Notes under the pieces: model-generated | Seen by the model: the letters and a program-made list of their open reading frames with translations, nothing else | Told to the model about the DNA's origin: nothing | The model's database searches: none | Made by a program: the position numbers and the translations under genes | Virus genome (UHGV): UHGV-0186543 | Strand: one strand, 5' to 3' | Origin: a virus | DNA: 46,602 bases | Shown here: piece after piece, positions 33 through 45,080 of the stretch | How the letters are laid out: each line of letters opens with the position of its first letter | Numbering within the stretch: position 1 is the first letter of the stretch

Positions 33-821
33 TCAAAATGCTGAATCAGCAACGGATACAGCCGACTTTTCCCCCATTAGCATCAATTTATCCAGCGTCA
101 TACTTCGCAGGTTGTCGCTGTGGATCACCAGATACCCTGCCCGCTCAGCGATCTCTTTGAAAGCGTCAAAGGTCATCAGATGTTCGCCTTTGGCAACATG
201 GCGCATCCTGGTCACTTTTCCATTTTTGATAGTGGTGATAAAAGAAAAATCCGGAATGGTTGGCTGATTTTCATCGAGTAGCAGGCAGTGGATGTATTCA
301 ATCGCCTCTAACATTTGCGTCTGTGACAGTTGTTCTATGTGAGAGACGGCGAAACGTTGGTGAATCATGGTGTAGGCATCGGGATACATCATGCCTTTCT
401 TACCGACCAGCATATTAACGGCATCACGTAAGGGAGTACGGTCATCGGTAGTTGTACTCCGCCTCTCTGGGCGCTGGCTAAAATAACAATCTTCAAGCTT
501 TTCGAAAACTTCCCAAGCCTGTTCTGTTTCCAGCATTTTGGCATGGCGAGCTGCGCCGCGTTCTGTCCAGAGAATGAGGGATCGGGTATGTTTAGCAACT
601 GACTGACTATCTGTCAGTCTGTTTTTGAAGTCGCGTAATTCATTACCTTCCAGCTTAAAAAAATGCTTTCCTACGACAAATCTGGCGATGTTGCGCTTGA
701 AGTTTTGCTGGATACCATTTACTTCCGTGCCATACAAACTGGCAAGCAATTCAGTAGTGATGACGGGAAGTTGGTTATGATGTAGCGGAGAAAGGGATTC
801 CGCAGATATTTGGATTGTCAT
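33..821 (-). CDS. ant: antirepressor (ORF6N/Bro-N-like N-terminal domain plus KilA-C/Ant-like C-terminal domain)
   Basis: ORF 33..869. The N-terminal LPVITTELLASLYGTEVNGIQQNFKRNIARFVVGKHFFKLEGNELRDFK is typical of ORF6N antirepressors. Start placed at ATG 821 (GAGG 8 nt upstream); ATG 851 or TTG 869 are also possible. Confidence 0.75.
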   Translation of the reverse strand: MTIQISAESLSPLHHNQLPVITTELLASLYGTEVNGIQQNFKRNIARFVVGKHFFKLEGNELRDFKNRLTDSQSVAKHTRSLILWTERGAARHAKMLETEQAWEVFEKLEDCYFSQRPERRSTTTDDRTPLRDAVNMLVGKKGMMYPDAYTMIHQRFAVSHIEQLSQTQMLEAIEYIHCLLLDENQPTIPDFSFITTIKNGKVTRMRHVAKGEHLMTFDAFKEIAERAGYLVIHSDNLRSMTLDKLMLMGEKSAVSVADSAF

Positions 822-982
822 CGCAGTGGCCTCACTTAGTGTTTTTTTCATCACCACCAGCGACGCCAATCATCTGGTGGTGAACTGTGCAGGGTTGGCG
901 TAACCGGCTAAGTGAACCCGGCGCTTCCGCAGAAGCCCCCACACAGCCCACCATAATGCGAATGTGGCCGTGCCTAACACAT

Positions 983-1005
983 AAAAAAACCGCTAACGCG
1001 GCTAT
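983..1005 (-). terminator. intrinsic terminator upstream of ant
   Basis: On the minus strand, hairpin AGCCGC-gtta-GCGGTT is followed by TTTTTAT. It lies between the 73-aa ORF and ant. Confidence 0.55.
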
Positions 1006-1093
1006 GCGTCACTTAGATATCCGGGACGCCAATCCCGGCAACCGATTTTGCGGCTGCGCGGAAACTATAGCCCCGGGCTTTTTCTAAGTCAAT

Positions 1094-4110: not shown

Positions 4111-5171
4111 AATGCCCCTTCCCTGGTTTTACGCAGTGTTTCTGGCTTCATCAGGTAATCAAACCCTGCCCGCCAGCCGGTGCGATATTCGCCGCCGAAA
4201 TAGAAGTCTGGGGCGTTATCGCGGAATTTTTCGAAGTAGCCGATAAATGCGCCAAGAGTTTGCGTGCGCATATGTGCCAGCAGGCGCAGGATTGCCCGAC
4301 GGCGGTCAGTATCAATTTCAGCTATAGGTAGCAGGTCGCCCAGAATCTCGTTGTAGCCCTTCACAACTTCAGCAGGGTCAACGGCAGCCTCAGCAGTGGC
4401 CCACGTCTCAGCGTCAGCCAGGTATCCGTCAAACCGGTTTACGCGGCAAATGTTCGCAGGTTTCGGAACGCTTCCGCTACGACGGCGCCATGTCGCAATA
4501 ACCCAACGAATTACTAACTGAATCTCAGCCACGCTGTAACCAGCGCGGGTGGTGGTGGCAGTTAGCAGCATGACAAACGGTTTAACGTCGCGGCAGCGGG
4601 TACCGACTTTCTCGTTGTAGTAGTTCAGAGCTTTTTGAGCGTCAGCGAGAATGATTTCCTCGCCCTCCCCCTTTTGGGGGTAAGGGGGATCTTTTATCTC
4701 TGTAGTACTCTCTGTTGTATTCTCTGTAAGAGATTGGGTCATTTTGACCTTAGCGCATGGGTCAACTTGACCTGATGCTTGGGTCACATTGACCTCTTCG
4801 ATTGGGTCAACTTGACCTAATCGATTGGCCACAGGGAATGTTGTCTCTTCAATCTTACATAACTGGGCATAATTGATTGAATACCACTTGGTTTTATCCC
4901 AGGCATCACTGTTAAAGTTCCCAGTAAATACCACATTCAATTTTTCCAGATTGGCCAGCACGCGTTTTATTGTCGACTCGCTCCAGAACGGGAATTGTTC
5001 TTGCCAATCGGTCACACTGTTGTACACCCAGTGGCGATTTTCGAAGAAATTTTGAGATGAATTCAGCCAGTAGTGGATTTGCTGTAGAACGATGGCTTCA
5101 TTCAACCCTATAGTGCATGCCAACGTGGGCAGGACCTGAAGGGGGTTTTCGTTAATCAGCAAACGACTCAT
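4107..5171 (-). CDS. replication initiator / replisome organizer (lambda O analogue)
   Basis: Located directly upstream of dnaB with an ATGA overlap. Contains four internal iterons, like lambda O. Start moved to ATG 5171 (GGAG 9 nt upstream; the track start 5207 is TTG). Confidence 0.75.
   Translation of the reverse strand: MSRLLINENPLQVLPTLACTIGLNEAIVLQQIHYWLNSSQNFFENRHWVYNSVTDWQEQFPFWSESTIKRVLANLEKLNVVFTGNFNSDAWDKTKWYSINYAQLCKIEETTFPVANRLGQVDPIEEVNVTQASGQVDPCAKVKMTQSLTENTTESTTEIKDPPYPQKGEGEEIILADAQKALNYYNEKVGTRCRDVKPFVMLLTATTTRAGYSVAEIQLVIRWVIATWRRRSGSVPKPANICRVNRFDGYLADAETWATAEAAVDPAEVVKGYNEILGDLLPIAEIDTDRRRAILRLLAHMRTQTLGAFIGYFEKFRDNAPDFYFGGEYRTGWRAGFDYLMKPETLRKTREGAL
4735..4817. repeat. 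origin of replication iterons (4 x 15 bp)
   Basis: TGGGTCAttTTGACC (4735), TGGGTCAacTTGACC (4758), TGGGTCAcaTTGACC (4780) and TGGGTCAacTTGACC (4803). Spacing is 22-23 bp. Each has internal dyad symmetry GGTCA/TGACC. Confidence 0.8.
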
Positions 5172-5173
5172 AC

Positions 5174-5398
5174 TCAGATCTCCAGAGCTTCGGCTATCTG
5201 ACGACAACCGGCTTCATAGTCCGCATTGCTCAGCCCTTTGTCGCGCAACTCGACCTTCCTGGATTCATACTGCTCCCACACCGAAAGCGCGGCAGCCATA
5301 CGCCCATCAAAAATAGGTTGGATCTCTGCAACATGTGCCGGGCGTCCATTCAGGTGCCAGCCGTTACGCCAGGTAATGCGGTCAATATGTCTTAACAT
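5174..5398 (-). CDS. hypothetical phage protein (74 aa)
   Basis: The ATG is preceded by CCGAGGAAAGACCG. The stop lies 2 nt before the initiator gene ATG. Confidence 0.6.
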   Translation of the reverse strand: MLRHIDRITWRNGWHLNGRPAHVAEIQPIFDGRMAAALSVWEQYESRKVELRDKGLSNADYEAGCRQIAEALEI

Positions 5399-5437
5399 CG
5401 GTCTTTCCTCGGTATAAGTTAAACGCTGGTCAGGCGC

Positions 5438-5914
5438 TCATGCATGGTGGCCTTGCGCAGTGCTTATCACTGCCCCTCGCGTCGCTACCAGCGCCGCTAT
5501 TGCTTCGTCAATTTCCTGGATAGTTAACTCTGGCGCGAAGTGGAGATGTACAGCGTTAATCGCTTCCACCCCTTCTTTTGCCGCCAGCGTTGCCAGCAAA
5601 ACGGGATCGCCCGGCGACTCCAGACGCGCCCGCCGTTCTGCGGGTAGCACGGCTTTCATCACACTGGCCAGCACCTGAGTTTTTCGGCGCGCCGCCGTTG
5701 TCTCGCCACGTAACCAGCGAAAGATTTTCTGCCGGTTGTTGTTGATGGCTCTCCAGTCCACGTTACCGTCCGCGTCCTCAAATTCATGTAGTCTCAACTC
5801 ATCATTGCGTCCCTGACTGAACCAGGCCCGGCAGATTTCAATTGTGACGAGTTCCTGCCCTGCCCTTGCCGCCCAGGTCAAAATCTCTTTTTGTAATTCC
5901 TCTGGGTTTTCCAT
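5438..5914 (-). CDS. YdaT-family protein (CII-like regulator position)
   Basis: 158 aa immediately downstream of the cro-like gene. The segment KIFRWLRGETTAARRKTQVLASVMKAVLPAERRARL resembles my recollection of Rac YdaT (YHRWLKGETKTQREKIQKLIPAILAILPRELRHRL). Confidence 0.55.
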   Translation of the reverse strand: MENPEELQKEILTWAARAGQELVTIEICRAWFSQGRNDELRLHEFEDADGNVDWRAINNNRQKIFRWLRGETTAARRKTQVLASVMKAVLPAERRARLESPGDPVLLATLAAKEGVEAINAVHLHFAPELTIQEIDEAIAALVATRGAVISTAQGHHA

Positions 5915-5973
5915 AGCGTCTCCTGTCGCTAAAAATTGATTACGCTTAATCAGATGTAATAAGCCGCCCTTTG

Positions 5974-6171
5974 CTAAGCTTTTTCATGTTTTGGAACATC
6001 GTAAAAAGTCGGGTCATATTTCAGTGCTCCGTTAGTGATATGGTCGAGTCGAGCAGCTCGCTTTTCAGGAACTGTTGCCCCCCAACGAGTAACCGCCACT
6101 TGAGATATACCCAGCACCTTGGCTGTGGCTGTCTTTGAACCAAAAAAACTAATAACCGTCTCTGTTTTCAT
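5974..6171 (-). CDS. Cro/YdaS-like HTH regulator
   Basis: 65 aa with HTH KTATAKVLGISQVAVTRW. Divergent from the repressor gene. SD GGAGGG upstream of the ATG. Confidence 0.8.
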   Translation of the reverse strand: MKTETVISFFGSKTATAKVLGISQVAVTRWGATVPEKRAARLDHITNGALKYDPTFYDVPKHEKA

Positions 6172-6182
6172 AATCCCTCCAC

Positions 6183-6235
6183 GTAACTTTTGTTAGCAAC
6201 ATAAATACTAACGAAAGTTATGTCAAGTTAACTTA
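6183..6235. promoter_or_regulatory. immunity switch: PR promoter plus operators
   Basis: Minus strand: TTGACA (6221-6226), 17 nt, TATGTT (6198-6203). Operators of type CTAAC-N4-GTTA at 6184-6196 (reverse-complement reading) and 6208-6220. Palindrome AAGTTAACTT at 6225-6234. Confidence 0.7.
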
Positions 6236-6239
6236 TATT

Positions 6240-6653
6240 ATGAGGATGAAGAATTTGATGCTTAGCGACCGTTTATCTCAAAGACGCAAACAGCTTGGTC
6301 TAACCCAACAACAGCTTGCTGATATGGTTGGAAGATCGAGTGTGAGCGTTTTTAAATGGGAAAGCGGACAAAATGAACCAAAGGGTCAGAACTTGCTGGC
6401 TTTGGCCAATGCACTTAAGTGTTCTGCCACATGGCTGCTTTTTGGTGACGAAGACCAGGCACCAACTCCGGTAGACGAATTACCAACAGAGCTGGATTCA
6501 CGTCAAAAAAGATTGTTAGAGTTATTTGATTCATTACCCGAGTCAGAAAAAGAAAAGCAACTAATTGAATTAGAAGATAAAGTTGAAAACTTTAATCGTT
6601 TATTTGAAGAGTTACTGGTTACCAGAAAGAAACTAACCCCCACCAAAAAATAA
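6240..6653 (+). CDS. CI-type repressor, XRE-family HTH, no S24 peptidase domain
   Basis: 137 aa. HTH LTQQQLADMVGRSSVSVFKWESG. Acidic, coiled-coil-like C-terminus. Too short for, and lacking, a LexA/CI autocleavage domain. Start could be 6240 (nearly leaderless) or ATG 6258. Confidence 0.85.
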   Translation: MRMKNLMLSDRLSQRRKQLGLTQQQLADMVGRSSVSVFKWESGQNEPKGQNLLALANALKCSATWLLFGDEDQAPTPVDELPTELDSRQKRLLELFDSLPESEKEKQLIELEDKVENFNRLFEELLVTRKKLTPTKK

Positions 6654-6656
6654 AAT

Positions 6657-6692
6657 AAAGGCAATGTTTTCAATGCATTGCCTTTATTTTTA
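6657..6692 (+). terminator. intrinsic terminator after the repressor gene
   Basis: AAAGGCAATG ... CATTGCCTTT stem (6657-6666 / 6676-6685) followed by ATTTTTA. Confidence 0.75.
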
Positions 6693-6701
6693 CCCCAAAT
6701 A

Positions 6702-6752
6702 CTAACCTTTGTTATAAAACGCCTTGCACATAAAATTACCTTTAGTTATATT
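6702..6752 (+). promoter_or_regulatory. candidate PL promoter with operator-like sites
   Basis: TTGCAC (6724-6729), 17 nt, TATATT (6747-6752). CTAACctttGTTA at 6702-6714 matches the PR operators. A weaker TTACctttaGTTA at 6737-6749 has an N5 spacer. Confidence 0.55.
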
Positions 6753-6800
6753 CATTCCATCAACAACGCTTACCCAGCGGCAGTTGTTCAGAAACAAGTT

Positions 6801-6823
6801 CTGACAGCCGGAAAGACGGCACC
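6801..6823 (+). repeat. 23-bp direct repeat, copy 1
   Basis: ctgacagccggaaagacggcacc, identical to 7254-7276. Confidence 0.9.
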
Positions 6824-7108
6824 AAATTTTGCGCGTCGGCGCCAACACGATGACAGAGGGAAAGACTTCACCGGCATATGGCACATGTGTCGAAGCGGTC
6901 TGGATGGAAGCGGAGCCTTAACGCGTTGTCTCCATAGCAGGTAGCCGGAATGTGCAAGCCACAGCCAGGTATGAGCGATTGATTCACCATCAAGGCGATA
7001 CGGTGTGACCACCAGGGAAGAGTCCTGGCTACAACACGAGAGCGCACTTCATCGACTCAACTTTGAGCTTTGTCGTTAAATTTTGAAATGGCGGAGTGCG
7101 CTCCCGGT

Positions 7109-7173
7109 TGTGGTGAACAGGTGTTTAACGGGAACTCCCTGCCCGTTACCCGGTTCGATTCCGGGCGCTACAC
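7109..7173 (+). ncRNA. tRNA-like element (T-arm plus acceptor-like stem), not a canonical tRNA
   Basis: CCCGG-TTCGATT-CCGGG T-arm at 7149-7165. 7166-7172 CGCTACA can pair with 7109-7115 TGTGGTG (two G-U pairs). The interior is only 33 nt, with no D-arm and a 9-nt central loop. Confidence 0.3.
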
Positions 7174-7253
7174 CGTAATTATTGGGACCCTCTGGTGAAA
7201 GCCAGAGCCTCTCGCAGAGAGGCGCAACGAGGAAAGACCGGGCATGACCAGCC

Positions 7254-7276
7254 CTGACAGCCGGAAAGACGGCACC
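7254..7276 (+). repeat. 23-bp direct repeat, copy 2
   Basis: ctgacagccggaaagacggcacc, identical to 6801-6823 and 453 bp downstream of it. Confidence 0.9.
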
Positions 7277-7430
7277 CTTTAGATGGCAAAAGACCCGCAC
7301 AAGGCGGGCCAGTTACCCCGAACGGCGACCAAACCATTCGGATATGGTGCAAGGGACCAACCTTACACCGAGGAAAGACCAACGACAGAGCCGCTGATCG
7401 GTTCTGAGTATACCCCACCAAGGAGTCGCT

Positions 7431-7751
7431 ATGGAAGCGCGCACCATCCCAGTAACACTCTTTATTAATTATGCAACTTCAACTTTCAGCCACGAAAAGC
7501 TGCTTGTTGCGACTGTTGATATGTCAAAAAATTTTCCAGACAGGTACATCCTTCTGGAAAGCCGCGAAATTGAAATTACCGTCAACCAGCCCCAGCCAAT
7601 CGACATCATCGGTTTACAGGTCGAGCAACTGCGTGAACAAAAACAGAAAACAGTCGCCGAAGCCCAACAGCGTATTGCTGCTATCGATGACAAAATCCAG
7701 CAGTTACTTTGCATCGAATACACGCCAGATACTGATGAAATCCCCTACTAA
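7431..7751 (+). CDS. hypothetical early-left protein (106 aa)
   Basis: ATG with AAGGAG 7 nt upstream. C-terminal coiled-coil-like segment. First gene after the long leader. Confidence 0.6.
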   Translation: MEARTIPVTLFINYATSTFSHEKLLVATVDMSKNFPDRYILLESREIEITVNQPQPIDIIGLQVEQLREQKQKTVAEAQQRIAAIDDKIQQLLCIEYTPDTDEIPY

Positions 7752-7781: not shown

Positions 7782-9995
7782 ATGACCATTTTTAACGGCT
7801 TGTTAGAAGCGAAAAAAGGCGCGCTCAAAAACGGCGCGATCCCGGCGCTGGCCATCGCCATCGACGCCCCTAACAAAAAAGTTGCCGAGAACATCATCAT
7901 CGGCAAATTGTGGGAAGCCTACCCTGACCACGGCGACAACTATTTCAAACCTAAAATCTGGGAAGATGCCCCGGGCCAACCGCGCCCAGGCGTTGGTGAG
8001 TTTGATGAGACGTTCGCCACAGAACACAGTTTTGATGGCGAAAAATGGGTAGTTAACACCCCCGTTGTAGATAGCGGTTCAGCAGATATCGCACAGGTTA
8101 ACGACCTGATGAAACTGCCGGCTCGTGAACGATTCGCCGCCGTTCTGCTGTTCAGCCACGACGCCAACGAAGTCGACAGTGAATTGCTTGCGCAGACGCG
8201 TGAATACCTGGAGATGCTCGACAACAGTGATACTGACAGTGAGGATGAGGTTGACGCATTTAACCGCATCGTTCTTGATGCCATGGTGGCGTGTAAGCCC
8301 ATCGAGTACATGCATATTGCTGGATTGAATAATCTGGTACATGCAATTTTGGCAAGTTGCGATACCCAGGAACAAAACCCGACCAGTTGGACTATCTCCA
8401 AATTTATAAAAAAATGGGTAGAGAATCCCGGTAAACGCGATGAAATGCTGCCGGAGGTAAAACCAGAAACAGCATCCGCACGTCCTTACCAACAGACTCA
8501 CGCCACACTGGATCGTGAAATTGCCTGCGCCCTGTTACCCGTTGGCCCGGAAAAAATCACCCCCAGCGTCCTGAAAGCGGCAGACGAAATAATCAGCCAG
8601 GATCGGGAGGATTTTAAACGCTGGTCAATGGCCTTGCGCACAACGGATCAGATCCTTGCCTATGACCGCGCATCAGTATTCGGTGTTATTCAGAGCGCCC
8701 CCGCAAAAGACACGTACCACTTCCCACAATCCCTGCGCAGTCACATCGACAACTGGCTGCAAGCTAACGGGCAGCGTGATGCAAATGCTGTTGAAGAGAA
8801 GCCAAAGGAAGCAGCACCAAAGGATGATGTAAAAGTCACCAACCACGGCGGCGGACGATTCTCAATTGATGGGATGATGTCAGAAACACCCTCAAATCAT
8901 GGCGAAAAAAGCGAAGCTGCAAATGCTGGAGAACGTAGTTTGCAGCAGTTGCGTGAGCGGTTTGTCACGCCTCGCCATGTGTATGACGTACCTGAAAATA
9001 ACGCCGTCTCACAGAGGGAACCTACAGCTATTACCCCGGCAGAAGAGACTCCTCCACAAGAAAAACTTAGCGAGCAGGTAAAGGATCTGGTGCAGAACGT
9101 TGACGCGCTGGTTGAGCGGATCCATACCGAAGAGCACAAGCGGCAGAATGCAATCTCAGCTATCGAAACGGAGTTAAAGGACTCCGACGACACAGATAAC
9201 CTGGCATTGTGGAAGAACGTATTCAAAACCGATGAGCGCTTCACCAGTGCTTTCTCTCAGAACGGCGGCGGCACATCCATCAACGGCACTTATATAGCGA
9301 TGAAAGCGACTCGCGAATTTGGGCCGTTTGGTATTGGCTGGGGTGTAGAGGTGGTGGAAGAGCGTTTTGATAAAGGCGCACCGATAGTTCGCAAAAAACA
9401 GGTTGGTGAAAAAATAGAATGGGATCTGATTCAAGACGGTGTTGGCGGGTACCTATGTGAAATGCACCACACCATGAAAGTTAGAGTCTGGTACATATTG
9501 AATGGAGTGCGCGGTGAGTCCGAGGCTTACGGATGCACACCTTATATCTACGACACTAAATACGGACCAACAAGCGACGGCGAAGCGCCGAAGAAATCCT
9601 GGACGGATGCTGTTAAGAAAGCGCTATCCCCTCTCGGATTCAGCGCCGATATTTTCATGGGCCTGTACGACAATCCGGAATACCGCCAGAGGAATAAAGC
9701 TGAGTTTGATATCAAGAATGCCAGCGAGAATGCGGAAGATGCTACCCGTCTGCGTAAGGAACTGGATGAGAAGCTTATCAACGTTGCCAATACGCTGGCC
9801 TCCGCGGTAACCACTAACGAAGTAAACAAGGTATTTGGCCTCATCGCCCGCGAAGTGGATGTACACCGAAAAGCAGCAGAAGCCAAAGGCGATAAAGAAT
9901 ATTCATCGTATCTGGGATCGCGCCTGCGCCGTATCACCGACATCAAAACTGAACGCCTCGCCGCCCTCACCGCTGCACAGGAGCAAACCGCATGA
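7782..9995 (+). CDS. large protein with a C-terminal Rad52/Sak-type single-strand annealing domain
   Basis: 737 aa. The C-terminal part, YIAMKATREFGPFGIGWGVEV ... APKKSWTDAVKKALSPLGFSADIFMGLYDNPEY, follows the Rad52 pattern (YIEG..VI..AN..FG..GW ... KEAVTDGLKRALRSFG). The roughly 470-aa acidic N-terminal region is unassigned. Confidence 0.6.
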   Translation: MTIFNGLLEAKKGALKNGAIPALAIAIDAPNKKVAENIIIGKLWEAYPDHGDNYFKPKIWEDAPGQPRPGVGEFDETFATEHSFDGEKWVVNTPVVDSGSADIAQVNDLMKLPARERFAAVLLFSHDANEVDSELLAQTREYLEMLDNSDTDSEDEVDAFNRIVLDAMVACKPIEYMHIAGLNNLVHAILASCDTQEQNPTSWTISKFIKKWVENPGKRDEMLPEVKPETASARPYQQTHATLDREIACALLPVGPEKITPSVLKAADEIISQDREDFKRWSMALRTTDQILAYDRASVFGVIQSAPAKDTYHFPQSLRSHIDNWLQANGQRDANAVEEKPKEAAPKDDVKVTNHGGGRFSIDGMMSETPSNHGEKSEAANAGERSLQQLRERFVTPRHVYDVPENNAVSQREPTAITPAEETPPQEKLSEQVKDLVQNVDALVERIHTEEHKRQNAISAIETELKDSDDTDNLALWKNVFKTDERFTSAFSQNGGGTSINGTYIAMKATREFGPFGIGWGVEVVEERFDKGAPIVRKKQVGEKIEWDLIQDGVGGYLCEMHHTMKVRVWYILNGVRGESEAYGCTPYIYDTKYGPTSDGEAPKKSWTDAVKKALSPLGFSADIFMGLYDNPEYRQRNKAEFDIKNASENAEDATRLRKELDEKLINVANTLASAVTTNEVNKVFGLIAREVDVHRKAAEAKGDKEYSSYLGSRLRRITDIKTERLAALTAAQEQTA

Positions 9996-10561
9996 GCACC
10001 GCTATCGCTATTGCAAAAGAATATGCCAGCCTGATTGACCTGCTGGAAACCTCCGACGAACTGACGCCAGAGATGATCGCCGACACGCTTGAAGGTATGG
10101 AAGGAGAACTGGGAGACAAACTGGACGCCATGATGGTCATCTGCCGCAATTTACAGGGCAATGCCAATACCTGCGCTGAAGAAATGTCTCGCCTGGCTAC
10201 CCGTAAGACGTCCTTTGAAGACAAGGAAAAAGCAATCCGAAAGCATATGCTCGCCTGCATGCAAGCTGCTGGCCTGGATAAACTGAAAACCGCAAAAAAC
10301 ACATTTACTGATGCACAGGGGGCTATCTGGGTAATTATCGATAGCAAAGATAAGATCCCGGATGAGTATGAAGGCGTGTCACTTGTTGATGTAGAAACGG
10401 TTATTACACCAAACAAGCGAGCCATTAAAGAAGTGATTGAATCTGCGGAGGCGGTTGCCGCCGAAATACTGGCGCGTGGAGAAACACCACCAGCCGAGTT
10501 ATTAAACCCGGTACCAGGCGCACATCTGGAACGCGGCGAACGTTCACTGAGGGTACGCTAA
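9992..10561 (+). CDS. Gp157-family protein (Sipho_Gp157-like)
   Basis: 189 aa. The N-terminal YASLIDLLETSDELTPEMIADTLEGMEGELGDKLDAM and later IPDEY pattern are typical of this family. Overlaps the upstream stop. Confidence 0.6.
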   Translation: MSTAIAIAKEYASLIDLLETSDELTPEMIADTLEGMEGELGDKLDAMMVICRNLQGNANTCAEEMSRLATRKTSFEDKEKAIRKHMLACMQAAGLDKLKTAKNTFTDAQGAIWVIIDSKDKIPDEYEGVSLVDVETVITPNKRAIKEVIESAEAVAAEILARGETPPAELLNPVPGAHLERGERSLRVR

Positions 10562-10743
10562 TGCTTAAACTCACATTAAAGCGTGGTGACGCGGTTCACC
10601 TGGTACTTGCCGATGGAACCAACGGCATTATTGAAGCACGGAGCCGCTGCGAACTTGGGCTACACCTGCCAGAAAACATTAAGGTCACTCGGGAGAAATC
10701 GGCATTCCCCCCACCAGAACTGATTACGCCTAATCAGAAATAA
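10561..10743 (+). CDS. CsrA-like small RNA-binding protein (candidate)
   Basis: 60 aa. Ungapped alignment to E. coli CsrA as I recall it: ML.LT...G at the N-terminus and G...P...V.RE at positions 33-45, including the equivalent of the RNA-binding Arg44. TAATG start/stop coupling with the upstream gene. Confidence 0.45.
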   Translation: MLKLTLKRGDAVHLVLADGTNGIIEARSRCELGLHLPENIKVTREKSAFPPPELITPNQK

Positions 10744-10792: not shown

Positions 10793-11017
10793 ATGCTGCG
10801 ATGGCAACCGGGAGCAACTCTGCTCTCCGCATTTGATATCAAAATTGGCCGACTGTCGGCCAGCGTCAGGAAACAGGCTGTGACCGAGTCTGATATTGCC
10901 CGTGCCTGCAAGGCGGCAGATGACGCAATAAGCTACATAATGAGGAAAGACCATGAGAAGCGATCACGACATAATCACCAGAGAAGAAATGGTCGAGCTG
11001 ACGGGAAGCCCACTTAA
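10793..11017 (+). CDS. hypothetical protein (74 aa)
   Basis: ATG with GGAGG 7 nt upstream. The 3' end overlaps the xis-like ORF by 65 nt in another frame. Confidence 0.45.
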   Translation: MLRWQPGATLLSAFDIKIGRLSASVRKQAVTESDIARACKAADDAISYIMRKDHEKRSRHNHQRRNGRADGKPT

Positions 11018-11216
11018 ATCAAAGCAATGTGAGGCTCTTCGCCGGGCTGGAATTTTCTTCATGGAAAGGGCTGACGGGCACCCAAAAACAACCTGGGGCC
11101 ATTTCATGAACCCAATAAAATTTCGCAATTTACAGGAGGTGACGACGCGAAAAGATGATGAACCTGATTTTGGAGCAATATTTAATGGCCGGAAAGAGAA
11201 AGAACCCAGCAGATAA
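10953..11216 (+). CDS. excisionase-like protein (DUF4224-type)
   Basis: 87 aa. ITREEMVELTGSPLKSKQCEALRRAGIFFMERADGHP matches the DUF4224 pattern usually found just upstream of phage integrases. Leader TGAGGAAAGACC abuts the ATG. Confidence 0.65.
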   Translation: MRSDHDIITREEMVELTGSPLKSKQCEALRRAGIFFMERADGHPKTTWGHFMNPIKFRNLQEVTTRKDDEPDFGAIFNGRKEKEPSR

Positions 11217-12201
11217 CTGGATGCCGCCTCGTGTTTACCAGGGCAAAGCGGCCTACGAATTCAGGAATAAAGATAACAAAGCGATACGCCTGTGCGCATT
11301 GGATGCGCCACGATCAGCCGTATGGCTGGCATATGAAAAAGCGGTCGGTGACGAAAAAGAAAGAAATACTTTTCAGGCGCTCGCGGAACAATTCATGACC
11401 TCCCCTGATTTTATGGATTTGGCAGTCGAAACCAGGAAAGACTACACAAAATATTCCGGAAAAGTTCTGCCTGTCTTCGGGAAGATCGACCCGGATAAAA
11501 TCAAACCTGAACATATTCGGCGCTATATGGATCAACGCGGTTTATCAAGCCGAACTCAGGCAAACAGGGAAAAAAGCTTTATGTCCAGGGTATTCCGTTG
11601 GGGTTATGAACGAGGTTATGTCCAGAGGAATCCTTGTCAGGGAGTTAAGCAGTTTAAAGAGACAGCACGCGAACGTTATATTACGGATGAAGAATATCAG
11701 GCCGTTTATGAAGTATCTCCTGATGTTGTTCGCGTGGCAATGGAGATTGCCTACTTATGCGTGGCCAGACAGAGTGATGTACTTTCATTGCAGAAAGACC
11801 AGCTGTTCGATTCCGGGATCTACATTCGTCAGGGAAAAACCGGCGTTAAGCAAATCAAAGCCTGGTCGCCTCGTCTGCAGAAAGCGATAGCTCTGGCTCG
11901 TTCTCTGCCATTAAAACCGGGAATCAGTAGCCTGTTTGTGATTCATCAAACTACCGGAGGCAAGTACACCCGTGATGGTTTTAACTCTCGTTGGCGTGAT
12001 GTCAAAGCGGCAGCACAGGAAAAATATCCTCATCTGCAAATAGACTTCACATTTCATGATCTGAAAGCAAAAGGTATCTCTGATCTGGAAGGCAGCCTGG
12101 AAGAGAAGCAAGCAATTTCCGGGCATAAGAACCCACGACAGACAGCAGCATATGACCGAAAAGTTAAAGTAGTGCCCGTAGTTGGTGGCCAGAGAAAATG
12201 A
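11185..12201 (+). CDS. int: tyrosine site-specific integrase
   Basis: Start at ATG 11185 (MAGKRKNPADNWMPPRVYQGK). Catalytic-domain motifs ARQSDVLSL, HDLKAKG and GHKNPRQTAAYDR. Adjacent to the tRNA-derived att core. Confidence 0.9.
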   Translation: MAGKRKNPADNWMPPRVYQGKAAYEFRNKDNKAIRLCALDAPRSAVWLAYEKAVGDEKERNTFQALAEQFMTSPDFMDLAVETRKDYTKYSGKVLPVFGKIDPDKIKPEHIRRYMDQRGLSSRTQANREKSFMSRVFRWGYERGYVQRNPCQGVKQFKETARERYITDEEYQAVYEVSPDVVRVAMEIAYLCVARQSDVLSLQKDQLFDSGIYIRQGKTGVKQIKAWSPRLQKAIALARSLPLKPGISSLFVIHQTTGGKYTRDGFNSRWRDVKAAAQEKYPHLQIDFTFHDLKAKGISDLEGSLEEKQAISGHKNPRQTAAYDRKVKVVPVVGGQRK

Positions 12202-12261: not shown

Positions 12262-12290
12262 TACAAAAAAACCACCCGAAGGTGGTTTCA
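12262..12290 (-). terminator. intrinsic terminator downstream of the tRNA-derived segment
   Basis: Minus strand: ACCACC-ttcg-GGTGGT followed by TTTTTTTG. Would terminate a tRNA gene reconstituted upon integration. Confidence 0.65.
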
Positions 12291-12331
12291 CGACACTGCT
12301 TATTGCTTTGATTTTATTCTTATCTTTCCCA

Positions 12332-12387
12332 TGGTACCCGGAGCGGGACTTGAACCCGCACAGCGCGAACGCCGAGGGATTTTAAAT
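12332..12387 (-). other. att core: 3'-terminal 56 nt of tRNA-Leu(UAA) (leuZ-type), partial tRNA only
   Basis: The reverse complement reads TTTAAAATCCCTCGGCGTTCGCGCTGTGCGGGTTCAAGTCCCGCTCCGGGTACCA. This is the anticodon loop through CCA of enterobacterial tRNA-Leu(UAA) as I recall it. The 5' half of the tRNA is absent. Confidence 0.8.
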
Positions 12388-38119: not shown

Positions 38120-38200
38120 ACAGTCCACTTTTTTGCCAGAGCGGATATCGCAAGCGTTAAGTCAGATATTTGAAAACGCATCGTTATCCTGGTTGGGATA
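38120..38200 (+). repeat. R0, degenerate copy of the R repeat
   Basis: TCCACTtttttgccaGAGCGGA hairpin (38124-38146) aligns with the R3 hairpin. ggttgggatac aligns with the G(T/G)GGGAAC block. Confidence 0.5.
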
Positions 38201-38315
38201 CTTGCACTACTTTTAGGCGTACTGCTATCTTGCACAGTTATTCAAAGGTAATTTTTTCTTTATTAGTAGCCTACTTCCAGGGGCTTGTACAACTGACAAA
38301 ACGAGGGAGATCCCC

Positions 38316-39095
38316 ATGAGCAACAAAGATTTTTCACTTTTTTATTTTGCAACCATTGATCGGTCTTACTTCCTCGACAAACACAATTTTTATGTTGCTG
38401 AAGCCAGAAAGCGTCTATTTTCGCAGTTTAGCGATTCTGATCTTGAAGCTGATGCCAGGCAGAGAGAACAAGATTACTATGAGGCCGCCGGTAAGCGTTT
38501 TGACCCCGATTATGACGACGAAGGGGCTATCTGTGAACAGGCTCATGATGAAGGAATTTCACATTGGATTGCTCTCAGTGATATGAAAAATACGGTTTCA
38601 CTTGCTCTGACAGCAGGAATGTTTCATCAGTTCGACAAGGAACTTCGAGAGAAGTGTATCAGAGAATTCAGCCATTGGCTCGACGCTAAATCCGTAACAT
38701 CGATGATCTGGGACATTAGCTTCCCAAGGCTAATTGAAATTCTAGAATGGATTGGGATGGATATCACCAGCAAGGCTTATTACGAAAAAATCGATGCCTG
38801 TCGCCAAGTGGTTAATGTTTATAAGCACGGTGATGGCCATGCCCATCGGGTGCTTTCCGTCGCGCATCCTGAGTATTATCAGGATATCAATATTCCAAGA
38901 GGCTACAGATTTAGTCTACGTCATGAGCAACTTGAGGTTACAGAAACACAGTTTATAGAGTTTGCAGATGCGATTACAGCTTTCTGGAATGATATCCCAA
39001 CATACTGTATGCGCTCAGCTATTCGGGAAGAACCTGAATGGATAAATGGCGAATATAAAAAACATGAGAAGAAAGTTAAAATGCTTCAGGACTAA
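38316..39095 (+). CDS. orphan protein A (259 aa), function unknown
   Basis: ATG with GAGGGAG upstream. About 41% GC by eye. Flanked by R0 and R1. No confident domain (a RQVVNVYKHGDGH segment is only weakly HEPN-like). Confidence 0.7.
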   Translation: MSNKDFSLFYFATIDRSYFLDKHNFYVAEARKRLFSQFSDSDLEADARQREQDYYEAAGKRFDPDYDDEGAICEQAHDEGISHWIALSDMKNTVSLALTAGMFHQFDKELREKCIREFSHWLDAKSVTSMIWDISFPRLIEILEWIGMDITSKAYYEKIDACRQVVNVYKHGDGHAHRVLSVAHPEYYQDINIPRGYRFSLRHEQLEVTETQFIEFADAITAFWNDIPTYCMRSAIREEPEWINGEYKKHEKKVKMLQD

Positions 39096-39180
39096 AATTC
39101 TTGATAATAGCAAGTGTATCCTACATGTAGACATTTGCCTGCCGTGTCTTTTAGCTACCCTAGCTGCGAGAACAATTACG

Positions 39181-39286
39181 AACTTCCGCTCCTCGCTCAC
39201 AGCGAACTTTCAACTCAGTTAGCTTGCCCGCTTCGTACCAAAAGCGGGCATTGCTAACATCTATCTCCATCAATCTGTGGGAACAG
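39181..39286 (+). repeat. R1 structured repeat
   Basis: aacttccgctcctcgctcacagcg block, then an extended hairpin GTTAGC-tt-GCCCGCTT ... AAGCGGGC-att-GCTAAC (39218-39258), ending in gtgggaacag. Confidence 0.85.
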
Positions 39287-39573
39287 CTCGCCGTAATAGC
39301 ACATTGAATTCTATGTCTAAAAGCAGATGATCTGGTTTGCCGGGAAATTTACAAAATGACGGCGTCTCTTGTTAGAGATTCTCCCTGCTTCACACTGCTG
39401 ATTCTTCATGGATTTTAGTATAATTAGTGAAAAAAAATTTTTTGGTTGTTATCATATACATGAGGACTTCTTCAGAGGAACTGAGAAAAATTCGGGGATC
39501 ACTGAACACAATGACAATTAAGAAGATTAACTGTCTGGTAAGTGATTATTTTATTCATTAAAAAACAAACATC

Positions 39574-40236
39574 ATGATAATTGACTTTATAAAAAGCAAG
39601 GAAGCCTTGCTAATATTGGCAATAACTGTTCTATCTTATATGTCTGCAATTTCATTTGAATATGGCTATGCATATCATTTTGATTATCCTATGGAGTTTA
39701 TAACGTTAGATTCTAAATTTTTATTCGTGGGTATGTCATATTTATTTTTTAATATAATTTGTGTTATGTTGATGTTTTTTACTCCATGGCCTGAAAGTAA
39801 AGTAAAAGCAGTTAAAGTTACTGCAGTTACAGTTTTTATCATGATTGTTTTTATTGTTCAGTCTTATAGACATAAGACTGAATATGGTGGTTTTTTCGTT
39901 TTAAGTTTATCGATAGCAACAGTTACTTATATTATATACAAAATTGTTAAAAATCATAAACGTAATCCAAGTTATTTAATTTGGTCTGCAACCCTTCCCC
40001 TTATTGCCATAATGACATTTAGTTTCTTAATTGGTTTACAACAAGCGTCATTAAAAAAAGAATTTAGTTACTTTCATGATCAATCTAAAGACTACGTGAT
40101 TATTAGGTTGTATGACGGTAACCTTGTCGCTAAAGAAGTGAATATAAAAGAGCGCAAGCTAGGGAGTGAGATATTATATATACCTAGCTATAACCCAGCC
40201 CCTATAACGTTAAATAAAATTAAAATAGAACAATAG
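39574..40236 (+). CDS. orphan membrane protein B (220 aa)
   Basis: Very AT-rich. Four to five hydrophobic helices, then a roughly 70-aa soluble C-terminal region. Flanked by R1 and R2. Confidence 0.7.
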   Translation: MIIDFIKSKEALLILAITVLSYMSAISFEYGYAYHFDYPMEFITLDSKFLFVGMSYLFFNIICVMLMFFTPWPESKVKAVKVTAVTVFIMIVFIVQSYRHKTEYGGFFVLSLSIATVTYIIYKIVKNHKRNPSYLIWSATLPLIAIMTFSFLIGLQQASLKKEFSYFHDQSKDYVIIRLYDGNLVAKEVNIKERKLGSEILYIPSYNPAPITLNKIKIEQ

Positions 40237-40379
40237 ATTCATATAGTGGCCTTATGAAAAATAGGTCACTATCGTTGATATTTCATATGAATTTTTAACG
40301 ACCTTGGTAGTAAAATTATCGTAAATCCCCTACATAACAAGACCATTTACTATAGATCTGTTTTACTCTCAATAAAATC

Positions 40380-40480
40380 AACTTCCGCTCCTCGCTCACA
40401 GCGGACCTTCAGTTTTTTGTCCGCTTCGTGTCAGAAGCGGAAGTAGCTAACAACAGCCTATGTTGATTCAAGGGGAACAG
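40380..40480 (+). repeat. R2 structured repeat
   Basis: The first 24 nt are identical to R1. Hairpin TCCGCTTC-gtgtca-GAAGCGGA, then gctaac and aggggaacag. Confidence 0.85.
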
Positions 40481-40572
40481 GTCACTGGGTTAATCTAATT
40501 ATGTCCCTTTAGAACCATCTTTCTTAAGTGAATATATTTTCACTTTATTTTCTACTGCCTCAGTCATAAGGT

Positions 40573-41940: not shown

Positions 41941-42092
41941 ATCAGTTCCTTTTTACCAGGCTTCAGTCAGAGTACACTATCATTTTACATTTAAATGTAC
42001 TTCCAAGCATCATGCTGTTAGTGCTGGATTATAACACTTGGCACCCGTATGTTTGGATAACAAACTGCGTATAATCCTTGTGAGTTGTGATG

Positions 42093-42198
42093 TCTGTTTC
42101 TCGCTCACAGCGGGTCTTCAGTTGTTCGTCCACTCTGTGCCAGGAGCGGACATTGATTATTCCTCACTGTAAAAATCTTAATGCTAACTAGTGGGAAC
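42093..42198 (+). repeat. R3 structured repeat
   Basis: Contains ctcgctcacagcg, hairpin GTCCACTC-tgtgcca-GAGCGGAC, gctaac and gtgggaac. TATAAT at 42070-42075 lies just upstream, so R3 would be the 5' leader of the nuclease operon. Confidence 0.8.
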
Positions 42199-42220
42199 TA
42201 TAAGTTGTCAATTGACATGA

Positions 42221-43072
<852 letters not shown>

Positions 43073-43152
43073 CCAATATATGGCAGTAATGAATATTTCG
43101 GGGATCGTGTTTGCCGCGGTCACGGTTACCATTATTAGTGTGCTGAACTGAA

Positions 43153-44388: not shown

Positions 44389-44519
44389 TTAAATATTTTA
44401 ATCACCATCGTGCTGGCTGCCATCGCCTATATGGCGTTGCCTCATCACTCGAATCCGAATGCATAATCTTATCCGAGTGGGGAAAGTGCACCACCAAAAC
44501 ATCGAAACAGGAATAGAAA

Positions 44520-45080
44520 ATGAACGGAATATCAAAAATCATCTTAGCACTGACCGCTGGATTTACGCTGTCCGGATGTGTAAGCCATACCCAAAAAAAT
44601 TCACAACCAGATCCGGCTGCAATCGAGGCGGCAAAACTTGCGCAGTACACCGATTCACAGCTTTGCCAGGCAGAAGATAATATAGAGCCATTGCTCAACC
44701 TTAATCCATCATCTCATCCTGAATTTAATGAAAATTATCGCCGCGCCCAGGCTATTAAAAAGGTGATCGCCTCTCGTAATTTAAGCTGCTACCGCCTGAA
44801 AATGGAGAGGGCAGAACAGGCCACACCAGCACGCCCGTTAAGCCCACGACAAAAACAAGCGAGGGCATCCGCTGTTTGCCAGGCTTACGCCCAGCGTACC
44901 CGATTTGCGGATCCGACAGTCACATTTCAGATGTGCGGGAAAGGATTCCAGTCTACTTCGGCAAAATGTAAGGAAGATTTGGCGAGTTTTGAACGTGAGT
45001 CTCAGAAACTTAGAGGTACGGCCAGAGCGGAATATGTTGAAATTAGCAGTGCATTTCGGGCAGGCTGTGCTTTAAAATAA
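44520..45080 (+). CDS. lipoprotein (186 aa)
   Basis: Signal peptide plus lipobox FTLSGC. Several Cys residues. No other motif recognised. Confidence 0.7.
   Translation: MNGISKIILALTAGFTLSGCVSHTQKNSQPDPAAIEAAKLAQYTDSQLCQAEDNIEPLLNLNPSSHPEFNENYRRAQAIKKVIASRNLSCYRLKMERAEQATPARPLSPRQKQARASAVCQAYAQRTRFADPTVTFQMCGKGFQSTSAKCKEDLASFERESQKLRGTARAEYVEISSAFRAGCALK

Follow-up and report, generated by a model that had tools for sequence, protein, structure and literature searches.

RecE is a workhorse of recombineering, with an N-terminus that is still unexplained. Its nuclease is the C-terminal domain; the N-terminal ~560 residues are described as having no known function, yet they boost linear-linear recombination (PMC11611040). 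The C-terminal domain of Red-beta binds the SSB tail (...DDDIPF), the last Phe of which, above all, is the contact for many binding proteins, including Red-beta (PMC6393309). In phages of Firmicutes, erf modules of the Rad52 superfamily are bordered by Gp157 and Gam genes (PMC8093625).

We analyzed a gene of the viral genome UHGV-0186543 (46,602 nucleotides; this whole stretch is referred to as the window) that encodes a Rad52-type annealing domain behind a RecE-N-type N-terminal module. A literature search found no description of a Rad52-type/RecE-N fusion, and none of the 'Sak' prophages that Bobay et al. 2013 list in their Table S6 could be linked to the gene analyzed here.

An uninterrupted gene fusion

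The gene and the parts of its product are as follows.
7782..9995, + strand: whole annealing-fusion gene, 737 aa, with a RecE-N-type N-terminal module, a disordered linker, a Rad52-type annealing domain and a helical tail (ORF, phrog_2489, homologues)
7782..8057, + strand: domain A, residues 1-92, small alpha/beta (AF2; shared with a HannyBb-type exonuclease and most long fusions)
8088..8447, + strand: domain B, residues ~103-222, helical (AF2, charge, relatives)
8472..8786, + strand: domain C, residues 231-335, five helices, common to RecE-family proteins (PRK09709, phrog_607, phrog_2082, AF2)
8790..9068, + strand: disordered acidic linker, residues 337-429 (pLDDT <50)
8847..8915, + strand: conserved short motif within the linker, residues 356-378, GGGRFSIDGMMSETPSNHGEKSE (conservation)
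9072..9182, + strand: long helix before the annealing domain, residues 431-467 (AF2, block pLDDT 72-88)
9189..9674, + strand: Rad52-type single-strand annealing domain, residues ~470-631 (AF2, Foldseek, Pfam matches of relatives, HMMER)
9675..9992, + strand: C-terminal three-helix tail, residues 632-737 (AF2 helices, also in standalone homologues)

The ORF comprises 737 codons from an ATG start with no interruption, and the full-length protein matches phrog_2489 over its whole length. The gene is carried by 463 of 5,426 complete E. coli genomes (~8.5%), and in 439 complete E. coli genomes, where the identity is 95-99%, the same ORF is unbroken. Collinear full-length homologues were detected in Salmonella (72% and 55% identity), Stenotrophomonas phage BUCT708 (53%) and Pectobacterium phage ZF40 (36%). 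These data rule out the frameshift or sequencing error that the preliminary description had allowed for, and confirm that the gene is a real, uninterrupted fusion. As to sources, ZF40 comes from an induced lysogen, while BUCT708 is a phage record from hospital sewage; in Salmonella, the gene is very widespread.

The family of the annealing domain contains 4,700 cluster representatives. Most of the best 150 clusters (50% identity clustering) are 230-300 aa in length, and 26 of them are long fusions; standalone annealing homologues of 238-281 aa, which begin at the annealing-domain start, also exist. When the N-terminal half was used as the query, nearly all matches were near-identical Salmonella proteins. 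It could still be argued that the fusion is a sequencing or assembly join, or the pseudogene remnant of a cryptic prophage, as the window is unannotated raw sequence and frameshifts or truncations occur among the relatives (the PPompW_EH1992 gene; P0011, 622 aa; L014, 570 aa). The comparative data refute this reading and leave it practically no probability: in addition to the unbroken frames, the collinear homologues down to the ZF40 protein and the number of long-fusion clusters, AF2 predicts ordered domains in both halves of the protein.

The C-terminal Rad52-type annealing domain

The assignment of residues ~470-737 to a Rad52/Sak-type single-strand annealing protein is well supported, and annealing activity itself is predicted on this basis. 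The AF2 model of this part had a mean pLDDT of 93.7. In a separate Foldseek search against the PDB, the best seven matches were all the human RAD52 N-terminal domain (E 7e-07 to 4.5e-06, probability 1.0), and the match that followed these seven structures had an E of 8.6e-03. [quoted passage not shown]

Profile searches pointed in the same direction for the relatives, as Rad52_Rad22 was found in 28 of 34 (best E 2.5e-06) and no other Pfam family recurs; two standalone relatives, P0182 and P0183, carry precomputed PF04098. The window domain itself scored 14.1 bits (E 0.045), below the Pfam cut-off of 20.3 bits, and its PDB profile match to RAD52 (E 1.6) is not significant by itself. The Rad52 identity first proposed for this region is therefore upheld by the structural matches and by the relatives, but the domain occupies residues ~470-631 rather than 480-650.

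HMMER aligned the annealing domain in register with RAD52 residues 56-159, the GxGW segment included. One helix, KKsxTDAxKKAL ('KKsltDAikKaL'; pattern K-x-x-x-T-D-x-x-K-(K/R)-A-L), aligns to RAD52 KEAVTDGLKRAL; K604, K605, D609, A610 and K613 are invariant in a 34-sequence alignment, and K612 nearly so. In RAD52, K152 and R153 are conserved basic residues of the long helix lining the ssDNA groove. In the tail, the AF2 helices (residues 632-673, 678-701 and 705-736) have a pLDDT >90, and residues 656-737 are basic (pI 9.45). This helical tail is common to the standalone homologues.

The N-terminal region is an exchangeable module

As had been noted, the N-terminal region is acidic, moderately so (net charge -30 and pI 4.85 for residues 1-470), with an acidic cluster at residues 141-160. 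Its AF2 model is of moderate confidence (mean pLDDT 64.6), at which a fold could be missed, and a separate structural search with this model against the PDB and BFVD gave nothing at E <= 1e-3.

Domain A, with a pLDDT mostly of 68-84 and a weak block at residues 11-20, had no PDB or BFVD structure match. It is present in most long fusions and is common to the HannyBb-type DnaQ-like exonuclease, the alignment with which begins at residue 18. Domain A weakly resembles small alpha/beta proteins of the ribosomal or PurS-like kind; we consider this similarity unspecific, and no match reached E <= 1e-3. Domain B varies more than the other parts and is also the most acidic of them (residues 101-225 carry a net charge of -13), with AF2 helices at a pLDDT of 52-80; it is absent from one relative (P0123), doubled in two others (P0006 and P0014), and aligns to the RecE-like protein of phage SPN3UB from residue 141.

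Domain C is the most conserved N-terminal part and is not notably acidic (net charge -2, pI 5.9). W281, R286, L292, R319 and L326 are near-invariant, and the pLDDT is 79-88 over residues 240-300, declining towards residue 330. The preliminary description had assigned the N-terminus to no recognisable family, which does not hold for this domain. NCBIfam PRK09709 matches residues 231-335 (E 1.3e-12) over model positions 261-370 of 877, with 46.6 bits where the equivalog cut-off is 1269 bits; this is a partial and not a full-length match. Domain C also matches phrog_607 (8.3e-25) and phrog_2082 (1.3e-19). PF27430 is precomputed on homologues that include the N-terminal part, and domain C is probably the region that it covers.

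The net charge over residues 341-470 is -10. Within the linker motif, N372 and E378 are nearly invariant. A strict pattern of this motif, which the window's own variant does not fit, was found in 35 of 77 long fusions compared with 2 of the 1,119 remaining ORFs; the SPN3UB RecE-like protein has it at the corresponding position.

The module precedes three different effectors at the same prophage position: the Rad52-type annealing domain, a PD-(D/E)XK-like nuclease and a DnaQ-like exonuclease. Residues 141-323 of the window protein align to residues 166-375 of the SPN3UB RecE-like protein (E 4e-16). This protein (gp44) contains Exonuc_VIII and the PDDEXK-like DUF3799 and has a RecT neighbour. 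Residues 18-330 align to residues 20-339 of the HannyBb protein (E 1e-17), the C-terminal end of which is an Rv2179c-like 3'-5' exonuclease domain (2.4e-67). One protein from a viral contig (L016) has an Exonuc_VIII N-terminus (4.7e-77) and is near-identical to SPN3UB RecE as far as 'GISDPNDPKWVK', after which the annealing domain follows; this sharp breakpoint shows a recent module swap. Because of the ordered homology with the N-terminal parts of RecE-like and DnaQ-like proteins, and because of the L016 breakpoint, we regard the N-terminal region as a portable module of the RecE N-terminus kind, for which the domain shuffling suggests an adaptor role. Among the three options offered earlier for this region (exonuclease substitute, anti-host module or scaffold), its mosaic exchange before three DNA-processing domains favours the scaffold.

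As an anti-host module, the N-terminus would ride on the annealing protein without a direct part in recombination; it could, for instance, mimic DNA through its acidity or inhibit RecBCD or a defence system. The overall charge and the acidic cluster could be read in this way, and the N-terminal parts are variable and mosaic, as arms-race proteins would be. In addition, neither a Mu Gam homologue nor a homologue of the other tested partners was found in the genome and no RecBCD inhibitor is annotated in the near-identical GF131 prophage, and therefore linear DNA needs some protection. However, the related modules sit on two kinds of exonuclease, which points to a role in DNA-end processing and not to a free-standing inhibitor, and the acidity is not shared by domain C, the best conserved part. 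PADLOC gave no match for any of the four operon proteins, though its library covers defence and not anti-defence proteins. With nothing positive found in its favour, we consider the anti-host reading improbable.

No exonuclease was found in the protein or in the window

The copies of this gene are currently labelled 'exonuclease' or 'hypothetical', with RefSeq naming some of them 'exonuclease family protein', and phrog_2489 and phrog_7838 are both labelled exonuclease. These names imply a single-chain exonuclease-annealase in which the N-terminus is a cryptic exonuclease or its replacement, as the preliminary description had also suggested. The N-terminal similarity to exodeoxyribonuclease VIII models agrees with this idea, and the functional gap left by a genome with no separate exonuclease gene would be filled.

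The searches nevertheless argue against it. The full-length protein had no Pfam match, nuclease domains included, and its PDB sequence search returned noise only, with no nuclease. No nuclease domain of the window protein was found with NCBIfam either, the similarity to RecE being confined to the non-catalytic part of that protein, which carries its nuclease at the C-terminus (PMC11611040). The PD-(D/E)XK domain found at the C-terminus of RecE-type proteins (DUF3799/PDDEXK), which gp44 of SPN3UB has, is absent from the window protein according to Pfam. The structural search of the N-terminal model (PDB, BFVD) gave no nuclease match. There was also no catalytic signature, as residues 1-230 contain no invariant residue among aligned relatives and the conserved residues of domain C are W, R and L. 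Since phrog_7838 is the standalone Rad52-like domain itself, its label was evidently carried over, and the name 'exonuclease' in PHROGs and RefSeq appears to be inherited annotation. The N-terminus is without a nuclease; the cryptic-exonuclease reading is largely refuted, and we see very little chance that it is correct.

The absence of a partner exonuclease, which had been noticed earlier, holds for the operon and for the whole window. Nothing was found in the window by tblastn with the RecE nuclease domain, five nuclease/partner types gave no tblastn match, and no exonuclease is annotated in the GF131 prophage. The window has neither a RecT neighbour nor a Mu Gam homologue. A hidden exonuclease elsewhere in the genome was rejected: only GIY-YIG and HNH endonuclease-domain genes are present, and they sit in a variable island that the GF131 prophage, near-identical in other respects, does not have.

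A conserved three-gene cassette

Within the early operon, the annealing gene has the cI/cro-type immunity region on one side and xis/int on the other, and RecE-RecT of phage SPN3UB occupies the same position. The operon order is small gene, annealing gene, Gp157, 60-aa gene, xis and int, with the following neighbours.
7431..7751, + strand: upstream small gene, 106 aa, with a beta-rich N-terminus, a conserved helix and an acidic C-terminal tail ...DTDEIPY (phrog_2479)
9992..10561, + strand: Gp157-family gene (PF05565, 3.8e-29; phrog_253), the start of which overlaps the annealing-gene stop by 4 nt
10561..10743, + strand: 60-aa operon gene (phrog_2482; homologues in BUCT708 and ZF40)
10953..12201, + strand: excisionase (DUF4224) and tyrosine integrase, end of the early-left operon (Pfam, PHROG matches)

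The Gp157-like gene reported earlier as the next gene is thereby confirmed. It had no match among PDB sequences. Its PHROG label, 'Mu Gam-like', was not retained: an hhalign comparison with Mu Gam gave a probability of 1.6%, a weak test (six sequences, Neff 2.4, one target), and Pfam assigns only PF05565. A CsrA-like reading of the 60-aa ORF was without support from the Pfam or PDB sequence searches.

The tail of the 106-aa protein resembles the acidic SSB tail that ends with (I/L)-P-F, the window copy ending ...DTDEIPY and the reference tail being MDFDDDIPF (PMC6393309). Among its unique homologues, 53 of 58 end with acidic-x-[ILV]P[FY], at a median identity of 34%, and among the other ORFs of 80 viral loci, none of those with 60 aa or more ends with [ILV]P[FY]. 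The protein matched no Pfam or PDB sequence family (coiled-coil noise only), and 13 members of its family had no SSB/OB-fold Pfam match. A literature search found no description of an SSB-tail-mimicking small phage protein. The small gene and domain A occur together in 63 loci, are both missing in 13 and are discordant in 4, and a Gp157-like gene is found 3' of the annealing gene in 76 of the 80 viral loci; these loci are the closest relatives and phylogenetically non-independent, and the co-occurrence counts overstate the independent support. The same Gp157 arrangement was found in BUCT708, ZF40, PMG1, PseuP_222 and Vibrio phage D171. The conserved trio is the SSB-tail small protein, the annealing fusion and the Gp157 gene.

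This trio might be an exonuclease-less recombination system that obtains resection from host SSB-interacting nucleases or helicases, hijacked by tail mimicry. The small protein would present its tail to RecJ, ExoI or RecQ, or to the helical tail of the annealing protein, and the RecE-type N-module would anchor the complex as a docking platform. Such recruitment would be consistent with the tail being kept among divergent homologues, with the co-occurrence of the small gene and domain A, with a genome devoid of an exonuclease, and with the use of the ...DDDIPF tail by many proteins, including Red-beta, to bind SSB (PMC6393309). However, the resemblance covers a tail of 4-6 residues, and the ZF40 homologue of the small protein lacks the tail. 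The HannyBb-type proteins, moreover, have domain A and no such small neighbour, and the standalone annealing proteins of the family are found without the small gene. We regard this proposal, drawn from sequence resemblance, as tentative and rather unlikely. If true, the N-terminus of RecE would be a recruitment module of general use, interchangeable on annealases and on 5'-3' or 3'-5' exonucleases.

Discussion

The explanation that we favour, and hold to be fairly probable, is that one polypeptide combines an annealing C-terminal half with a non-enzymatic adaptor N-terminal half, within a conserved three-gene cassette that has no exonuclease. By analogy with RAD52, Sak and Red-beta, the C-terminal half would form oligomers, bind ssDNA through a basic groove to which K604/K605 and K612/K613 contribute, and bring complementary strands together; annealing of this kind could serve mosaic recombination, the repair of phage genomes and the formation of concatemers. 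The N-terminal half, composed of domains A, B and C and the acidic linker with its motif, would be a portable adaptor of the RecE-N kind. Enterobacterial temperate phages place this module before differing DNA-end-processing domains in the same operon slot, and its likely job would therefore be the delivery of the effector to a common partner or site, which may be a protein of the host or a structure in phage DNA. As no phage exonuclease is encoded, the ssDNA substrate would have to come from replication or from host nucleases.

The occurrence of the RecE-N module on an annealing protein or on a 3'-5' exonuclease shows that it is autonomous and effector-independent, and the natural chimeras with a defined breakpoint provide a means to test what the RecE N-terminus binds. 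The proper label for the gene is Rad52-type annealing protein; surveys of prophage recombination that rely on the 'exonuclease' or 'hypothetical' labels could miss it. Together with the annealing fusion, the SSB-tail small protein and Gp157 define a compact exonuclease-less cassette, which may show how phages borrow host end-processing enzymes. The annealing-fusion family is also a candidate source of new recombineering proteins.

Compared with known systems, the locus shares with lambda Red and RecET its early-left operon location and a presumed role in phage recombination. Those systems, however, pair the annealing protein with a dedicated 5'-3' exonuclease, plus Gam in lambda, whereas neither an exonuclease nor a Mu Gam homologue is found here. 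With the Rad52/Sak family (the human RAD52 N-terminal domain, lactococcal phage Sak, PF04098), which includes ~240-aa standalone phage proteins, two of them with PF04098, the window protein shares the core fold and an in-register alignment. It differs in its longer beta hairpins, in an insertion at ~530-556 relative to the short relatives, in its three-helix tail and in its 470-residue N-terminal extension, which phage annealing proteins normally do not have.

The Firmicutes erf-ssb modules, flanked by gam, gp157, DUF2483 or DUF1351 (PMC8093625), likewise link a Rad52-superfamily annealing protein tightly to Gp157 and to a protein with an SSB-type tail. Here, in contrast, Gp157 is downstream, the tailed partner is a 106-aa protein without a detectable OB-fold/SSB family signal, and the annealing protein is of the Rad52/Sak and not the Erf type and carries the RecE-N module. 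The 823-aa 'exonuclease' of the HannyBb/PPompW/CP-933P type (phrog_2082) has domains A, B and C in the same order and is encoded just upstream of xis/int, but its C-terminus is the Rv2179c-like DnaQ-type 3'-5' exonuclease and its neighbours lack Gp157 and the SSB-tail gene.

RecE/exodeoxyribonuclease VIII (Rac prophage; Gifsy and SPN3UB types) occupies the same slot and shows ordered homology over domains B and C as well as the shared linker motif, and its Exonuc_VIII N-terminus is found as such in some fusions. The window protein differs from it in having no PD-(D/E)XK domain and no RecT neighbour; in place of the nuclease it has an annealing domain as effector, and domain A stands in for the Exonuc_VIII domain.

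Gene integrity and spread

The 737-aa protein is encoded on the plus strand by a 737-codon ORF with an ATG start (7782-9995). Among complete E. coli genomes, megablast found the gene in 463 out of 5,426. In 439 of the 463, at least 80% of the query was covered at 95-99% identity, always on the chromosome. Collinear full-length homologues are encoded in Salmonella (72% and 55% identity) and by Stenotrophomonas phage BUCT708 (53%), while gp07 of Pectobacterium phage ZF40 is 36% identical across the whole length (E 2e-128). The 439 E. coli copies and these collinear homologues rule out a sequencing or frameshift artefact, and the single fused gene of the preliminary description therefore stands. 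The E. coli copies are annotated as "hypothetical protein" or "exonuclease family protein".

Genomic setting

The host of the gene is a lambdoid-type temperate phage, and the gene lies in its early-left operon.

Genes of the early-left region
5974-6171, minus strand, P22 Cro-like regulator
6240-6653, plus strand, cI-like HTH repressor
7431-7751, plus strand, 106-aa protein
7782-9995, plus strand, 737-aa protein
9992-10561, plus strand, Sipho_Gp157 protein, overlapping the 737-aa gene by 4 nt
10561-10743, plus strand, 60-aa protein
10953-11216, plus strand, DUF4224 excisionase
11155-12201, plus strand, tyrosine integrase

A Gp157-like gene thus does follow the annealing gene, as had been described. 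In lambda, the equivalent slot is occupied by exo-bet-gam, and in Salmonella phage SPN3UB it holds a RecE-like exonuclease and RecT. The 60-aa ORF (phrog_2482) is kept in the operon and is also present in BUCT708 and ZF40. It resembles CsrA by eye, a likeness that found no support in Pfam or PDB sequence searches; Vibrio phage VvAW1 carries a CsrA-type gene in an analogous operon. The roughly 780 bp that separate the cI-like repressor gene from the 106-aa gene (6654-7430) are devoid of a convincing ORF, and the related prophages of the bacterial genomes CFSAN061769 and GF131 have a similar, unannotated gap of about 1 kb. The early-left promoter/operator probably lies in this interval, perhaps together with a small RNA or antitermination site.

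The window aligns with the GF131 prophage over 35.6 kb. Since bases 12263-12387 (125 bp) match both ends of that prophage, as expected of an attP junction, the window is apparently an entire phage genome, circularly joined. The integrase adjoins a tRNA-Leu gene in GF131, and the CFSAN061769 prophage lies at a tRNA-Ser gene; the annotations of both prophages indicate lambda-like head genes and a P2-like contractile tail. Rfam detected isrK (80 bits), C4 antisense RNA (74.5 bits) and a1/b1 targets, all above the gathering score, at 873-1070 (minus strand), directly upstream of an ORF6N-domain gene (33-869, minus strand). This C4/ORF6N arrangement is like the P1/P7-type antisense immunity module that controls an antirepressor-like gene.

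A Rad52 fold in the C-terminal half

Many standalone proteins of 238-281 aa start exactly at the position matching query residue ~470. An AlphaFold2 model of the C-terminal half, built on an alignment of 34 standalone-type sequences (mean pLDDT 93.7), comprises a beta-rich core crossed by a long helix (residues ~470-631); the remainder, 632-736, forms three further long helices. When this half was compared with the PDB using Foldseek, the best seven matches were all the human RAD52 N-terminal domain (E 7e-07 to 4.5e-06, probability 1.0, ~170 aligned columns), the next match having an E value of 8.6e-03. Rad52_Rad22 was the only recurrent Pfam family, detected in 28 of the 34 members scanned singly (best E 2.5e-06). 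When the family profile was aligned with RAD52, residues 56-159 of the latter were matched in the register expected, at an E value of only 1.6, and the invariant "KKSxTDAxKKAL" of the family fell opposite RAD52 "KEAVTDGLKRAL". The C-terminal domain therefore has a Rad52 fold with the basic helix of the family. The initial Rad52 assignment is thus upheld by profile and fold, but not by strict Pfam membership of the window's own domain, which scored 14.1 bits against a curated cut-off of 20.3.

An exhaustive profile search retrieved 4,700 cluster representatives, 3,612 of them at E <= 1e-10. Of the best 150 of the 4,700, most (110) are under 300 aa long; 26 are long forms of at least 500 aa, all with the annealing domain placed C-terminally, and the remaining 14 fall in between.

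N-terminal half: a non-catalytic, mosaic module that some exonucleases also carry

The N-terminal half had been described as acidic and of no recognisable family. The first point holds in a moderate sense (residues 1-470: net charge -30, pI 4.85); the second is contradicted by several matches. Residues 231-335 match phrog_607, phrog_2082 and the RecE equivalog PRK09709 (model positions 261-370 of 877, 1.3e-12), and PF27430 is precomputed on homologues containing the N-terminal part. Using the Pfam set without PF27430, this half had no match. Identity as RecE was rejected: the 737-aa protein differs from RecE in having no nuclease domain and in reaching 46.6 bits on PRK09709 against a cut-off of 1269.

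Related N-termini are joined to different effectors. Query residues 141-323 align with 166-375 of SPN3UB gp44 (E 4e-16), a 975-aa protein with Exonuc_VIII at its N-terminus and a PDDEXK-like region at its C-terminus, encoded next to RecT. Phage HannyBb encodes an 823-aa "exonuclease" whose residues 20-339 align with query residues 18-330 (E 1e-17); its C-terminus is an Rv2179c-like DnaQ-type 3'-5' exonuclease (2.4e-67), and its gene lies directly upstream of xis/int. The exchange is seen most clearly in the viral contig L016 (IMGVR_UViG_2811995040_000001, 4372-6816), which encodes an 814-aa protein with Exonuc_VIII (4.7e-77). Across 500 aligned positions this protein and SPN3UB gp44 share 81% identity, and over residues ~100-435 they hardly differ. 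The likeness ends directly after "GISDPNDPKWVK", beyond which SPN3UB gp44 continues into its nuclease, whereas the L016 protein continues into a linker and the annealing domain. The latter is a natural chimera of an SPN3UB/Gifsy-type RecE-like N-terminus and a Rad52-type annealing domain.

The AlphaFold2 model of the N-terminal half (mean pLDDT 64.6) is divided as follows.

Predicted units of the N-terminal half (AlphaFold2)
Residues 1-92, domain A, alpha/beta
Residues ~103-222, domain B, helical
Residues 240-330, domain C, five helices (pLDDT 79-88 over 240-300)
Residues 337-429, disordered linker
Residues 431-467, long helix

The segment equivalent to ~112-235 (domain B) is duplicated in the homologues P0006 and P0014 (837 and 844 aa), and P0123 (505 aa) is missing domains B and C, having no residues 127-351; the module is thus itself built of separable units. 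Taken with the swap in L016 and the kinship with HannyBb and SPN3UB, this makes the N-terminus an exchangeable module, swapped with two exonuclease types. Foldseek of the N-terminal model against PDB and BFVD gave no match at E <= 1e-3. In the homologue alignment, no residue is invariant across 1-230 and conservation is confined to W281, R286, L292, R319 and L326 of domain C, so an active site in this half is unsupported.

The linker contains a short motif that is conserved, LGxG(R/M/K)FS(I/V)(D/E)(G/N)L (residues 356-378; 8847-8915, plus strand), with the longer consensus LGxGRFSIDGL...SNxGEK. The strict pattern was found in 35 of 77 fusions versus 2 of 1,119 other ORFs, and missed the window's own variant, GGGRFSIDGMM. 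The motif also occurs at the equivalent place in the RecE-like exonuclease SPN3UB gp44, and is a candidate docking peptide.

A conserved three-gene cassette

The nearest relatives of this annealing domain are encoded by 80 viral contigs, in 77 of which the domain is part of an ORF 511 aa or longer. A Gp157-like gene starts -42 to +114 nt from the stop of the annealing ORF in 76, the other four contigs ending there. Gp157 also adjoins standalone annealing genes in Pseudomonas phages PMG1 and PseuP_222 and Vibrio phage D171. A homologue of the 106-aa protein is encoded upstream in 64 of the 80 loci; the small gene and domain A are both present in 63 loci, both absent from 13 and discordant in 4, counts that are non-independent as the loci are related. 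The cassette of small gene, fusion gene and Gp157 gene is thus conserved.

The 106-aa protein matched no family in Pfam or PDB sequence searches, and its homologues (58 unique sequences) have a median identity of only 34%. Nevertheless, an acidic-x-(I/L/V)-P-(F/Y) ending is kept in 53 of the 58; that of the window's protein is ...DTDEIPY, and the ending resembles the E. coli SSB C-terminus MDFDDDIPF. When all six frames of the 80 loci were scanned for ORFs of 60 aa or more, 3,025 in total, the [ILV]P[FY] ending was exclusive to these homologues. The last residue of the SSB tail mediates the binding of many partners, including the Red-beta C-terminal domain (PMC6393309). That the SSB-like tail recruits host SSB-interacting nucleases is an attractive idea, if a rather improbable one. 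The PHROG label "Mu Gam-like" for Gp157 was not reproduced by hhalign (probability 1.6%). In Firmicutes phages, gp157 and gam occupy equivalent positions beside erf modules, from which an analogous function was inferred (PMC8093625).

No exonuclease partner and misleading labels

The reported lack of a partner exonuclease gene was borne out twice. The near-identical GF131 prophage has no exonuclease annotation, and tblastn of the window with five nuclease/recombinase queries (RecE nuclease domain, RecT, DnaQ-like domain, DEDD exonuclease, Vibrio-phage recombination exonuclease) and Mu Gam gave nothing better than E 0.086. The only nuclease-type genes of the window are one GIY-YIG-domain and one HNH-domain gene, in a low-GC (34-45%) variable island (38146-46602) missing from GF131.

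Genes of the variable island
42221-43072, LEM-3-like GIY-YIG protein
43153-44388, HNH_2 protein
45534-46457, LprI-domain protein

Several other ORFs of the island belong to no Pfam family. The island may serve defence or accessory functions.

Phrog_2489, phrog_7838 and RefSeq WP_072678885.1 carry the label "exonuclease" or "exonuclease family protein", yet have no nuclease domain, and phrog_7838 is a standalone Rad52-like annealing protein. These labels look like annotation carried over from the N-terminal module. They have spread into phage records, about a hundred of Vibrio phages for example, a widespread mis-annotation worth correcting.

Proposed function and comparison with known systems

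RAD52, Sak and Red-beta anneal complementary ssDNA. The C-terminal half would do the same, on ssDNA supplied by replication or host nucleases; the N-terminal module would be an adaptor through which the effector joined to it reaches a shared partner or site, and Gp157 and the SSB-tail protein would be accessory factors.

Neither the annealing family nor the RecE N-terminus is new, and both the full-length protein (a PHROG family) and its N-terminal part (a Pfam family) are already catalogued. The fusion, the effector swap and the SSB-tail neighbour are not described in the searchable literature; earlier prophage recombinase surveys may include the gene. Though no surprise in kind, the fusion can usefully serve as a natural experiment for studying the RecE N-terminal domain, whose function is still called unknown in reviews (PMC11611040).

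Having no exonuclease, the system differs from the Red/RecET type and is not two-component in that sense. The 737-aa protein would instead work like the Rad52/Sak annealing proteins, to whose superfamily it belongs by fold.
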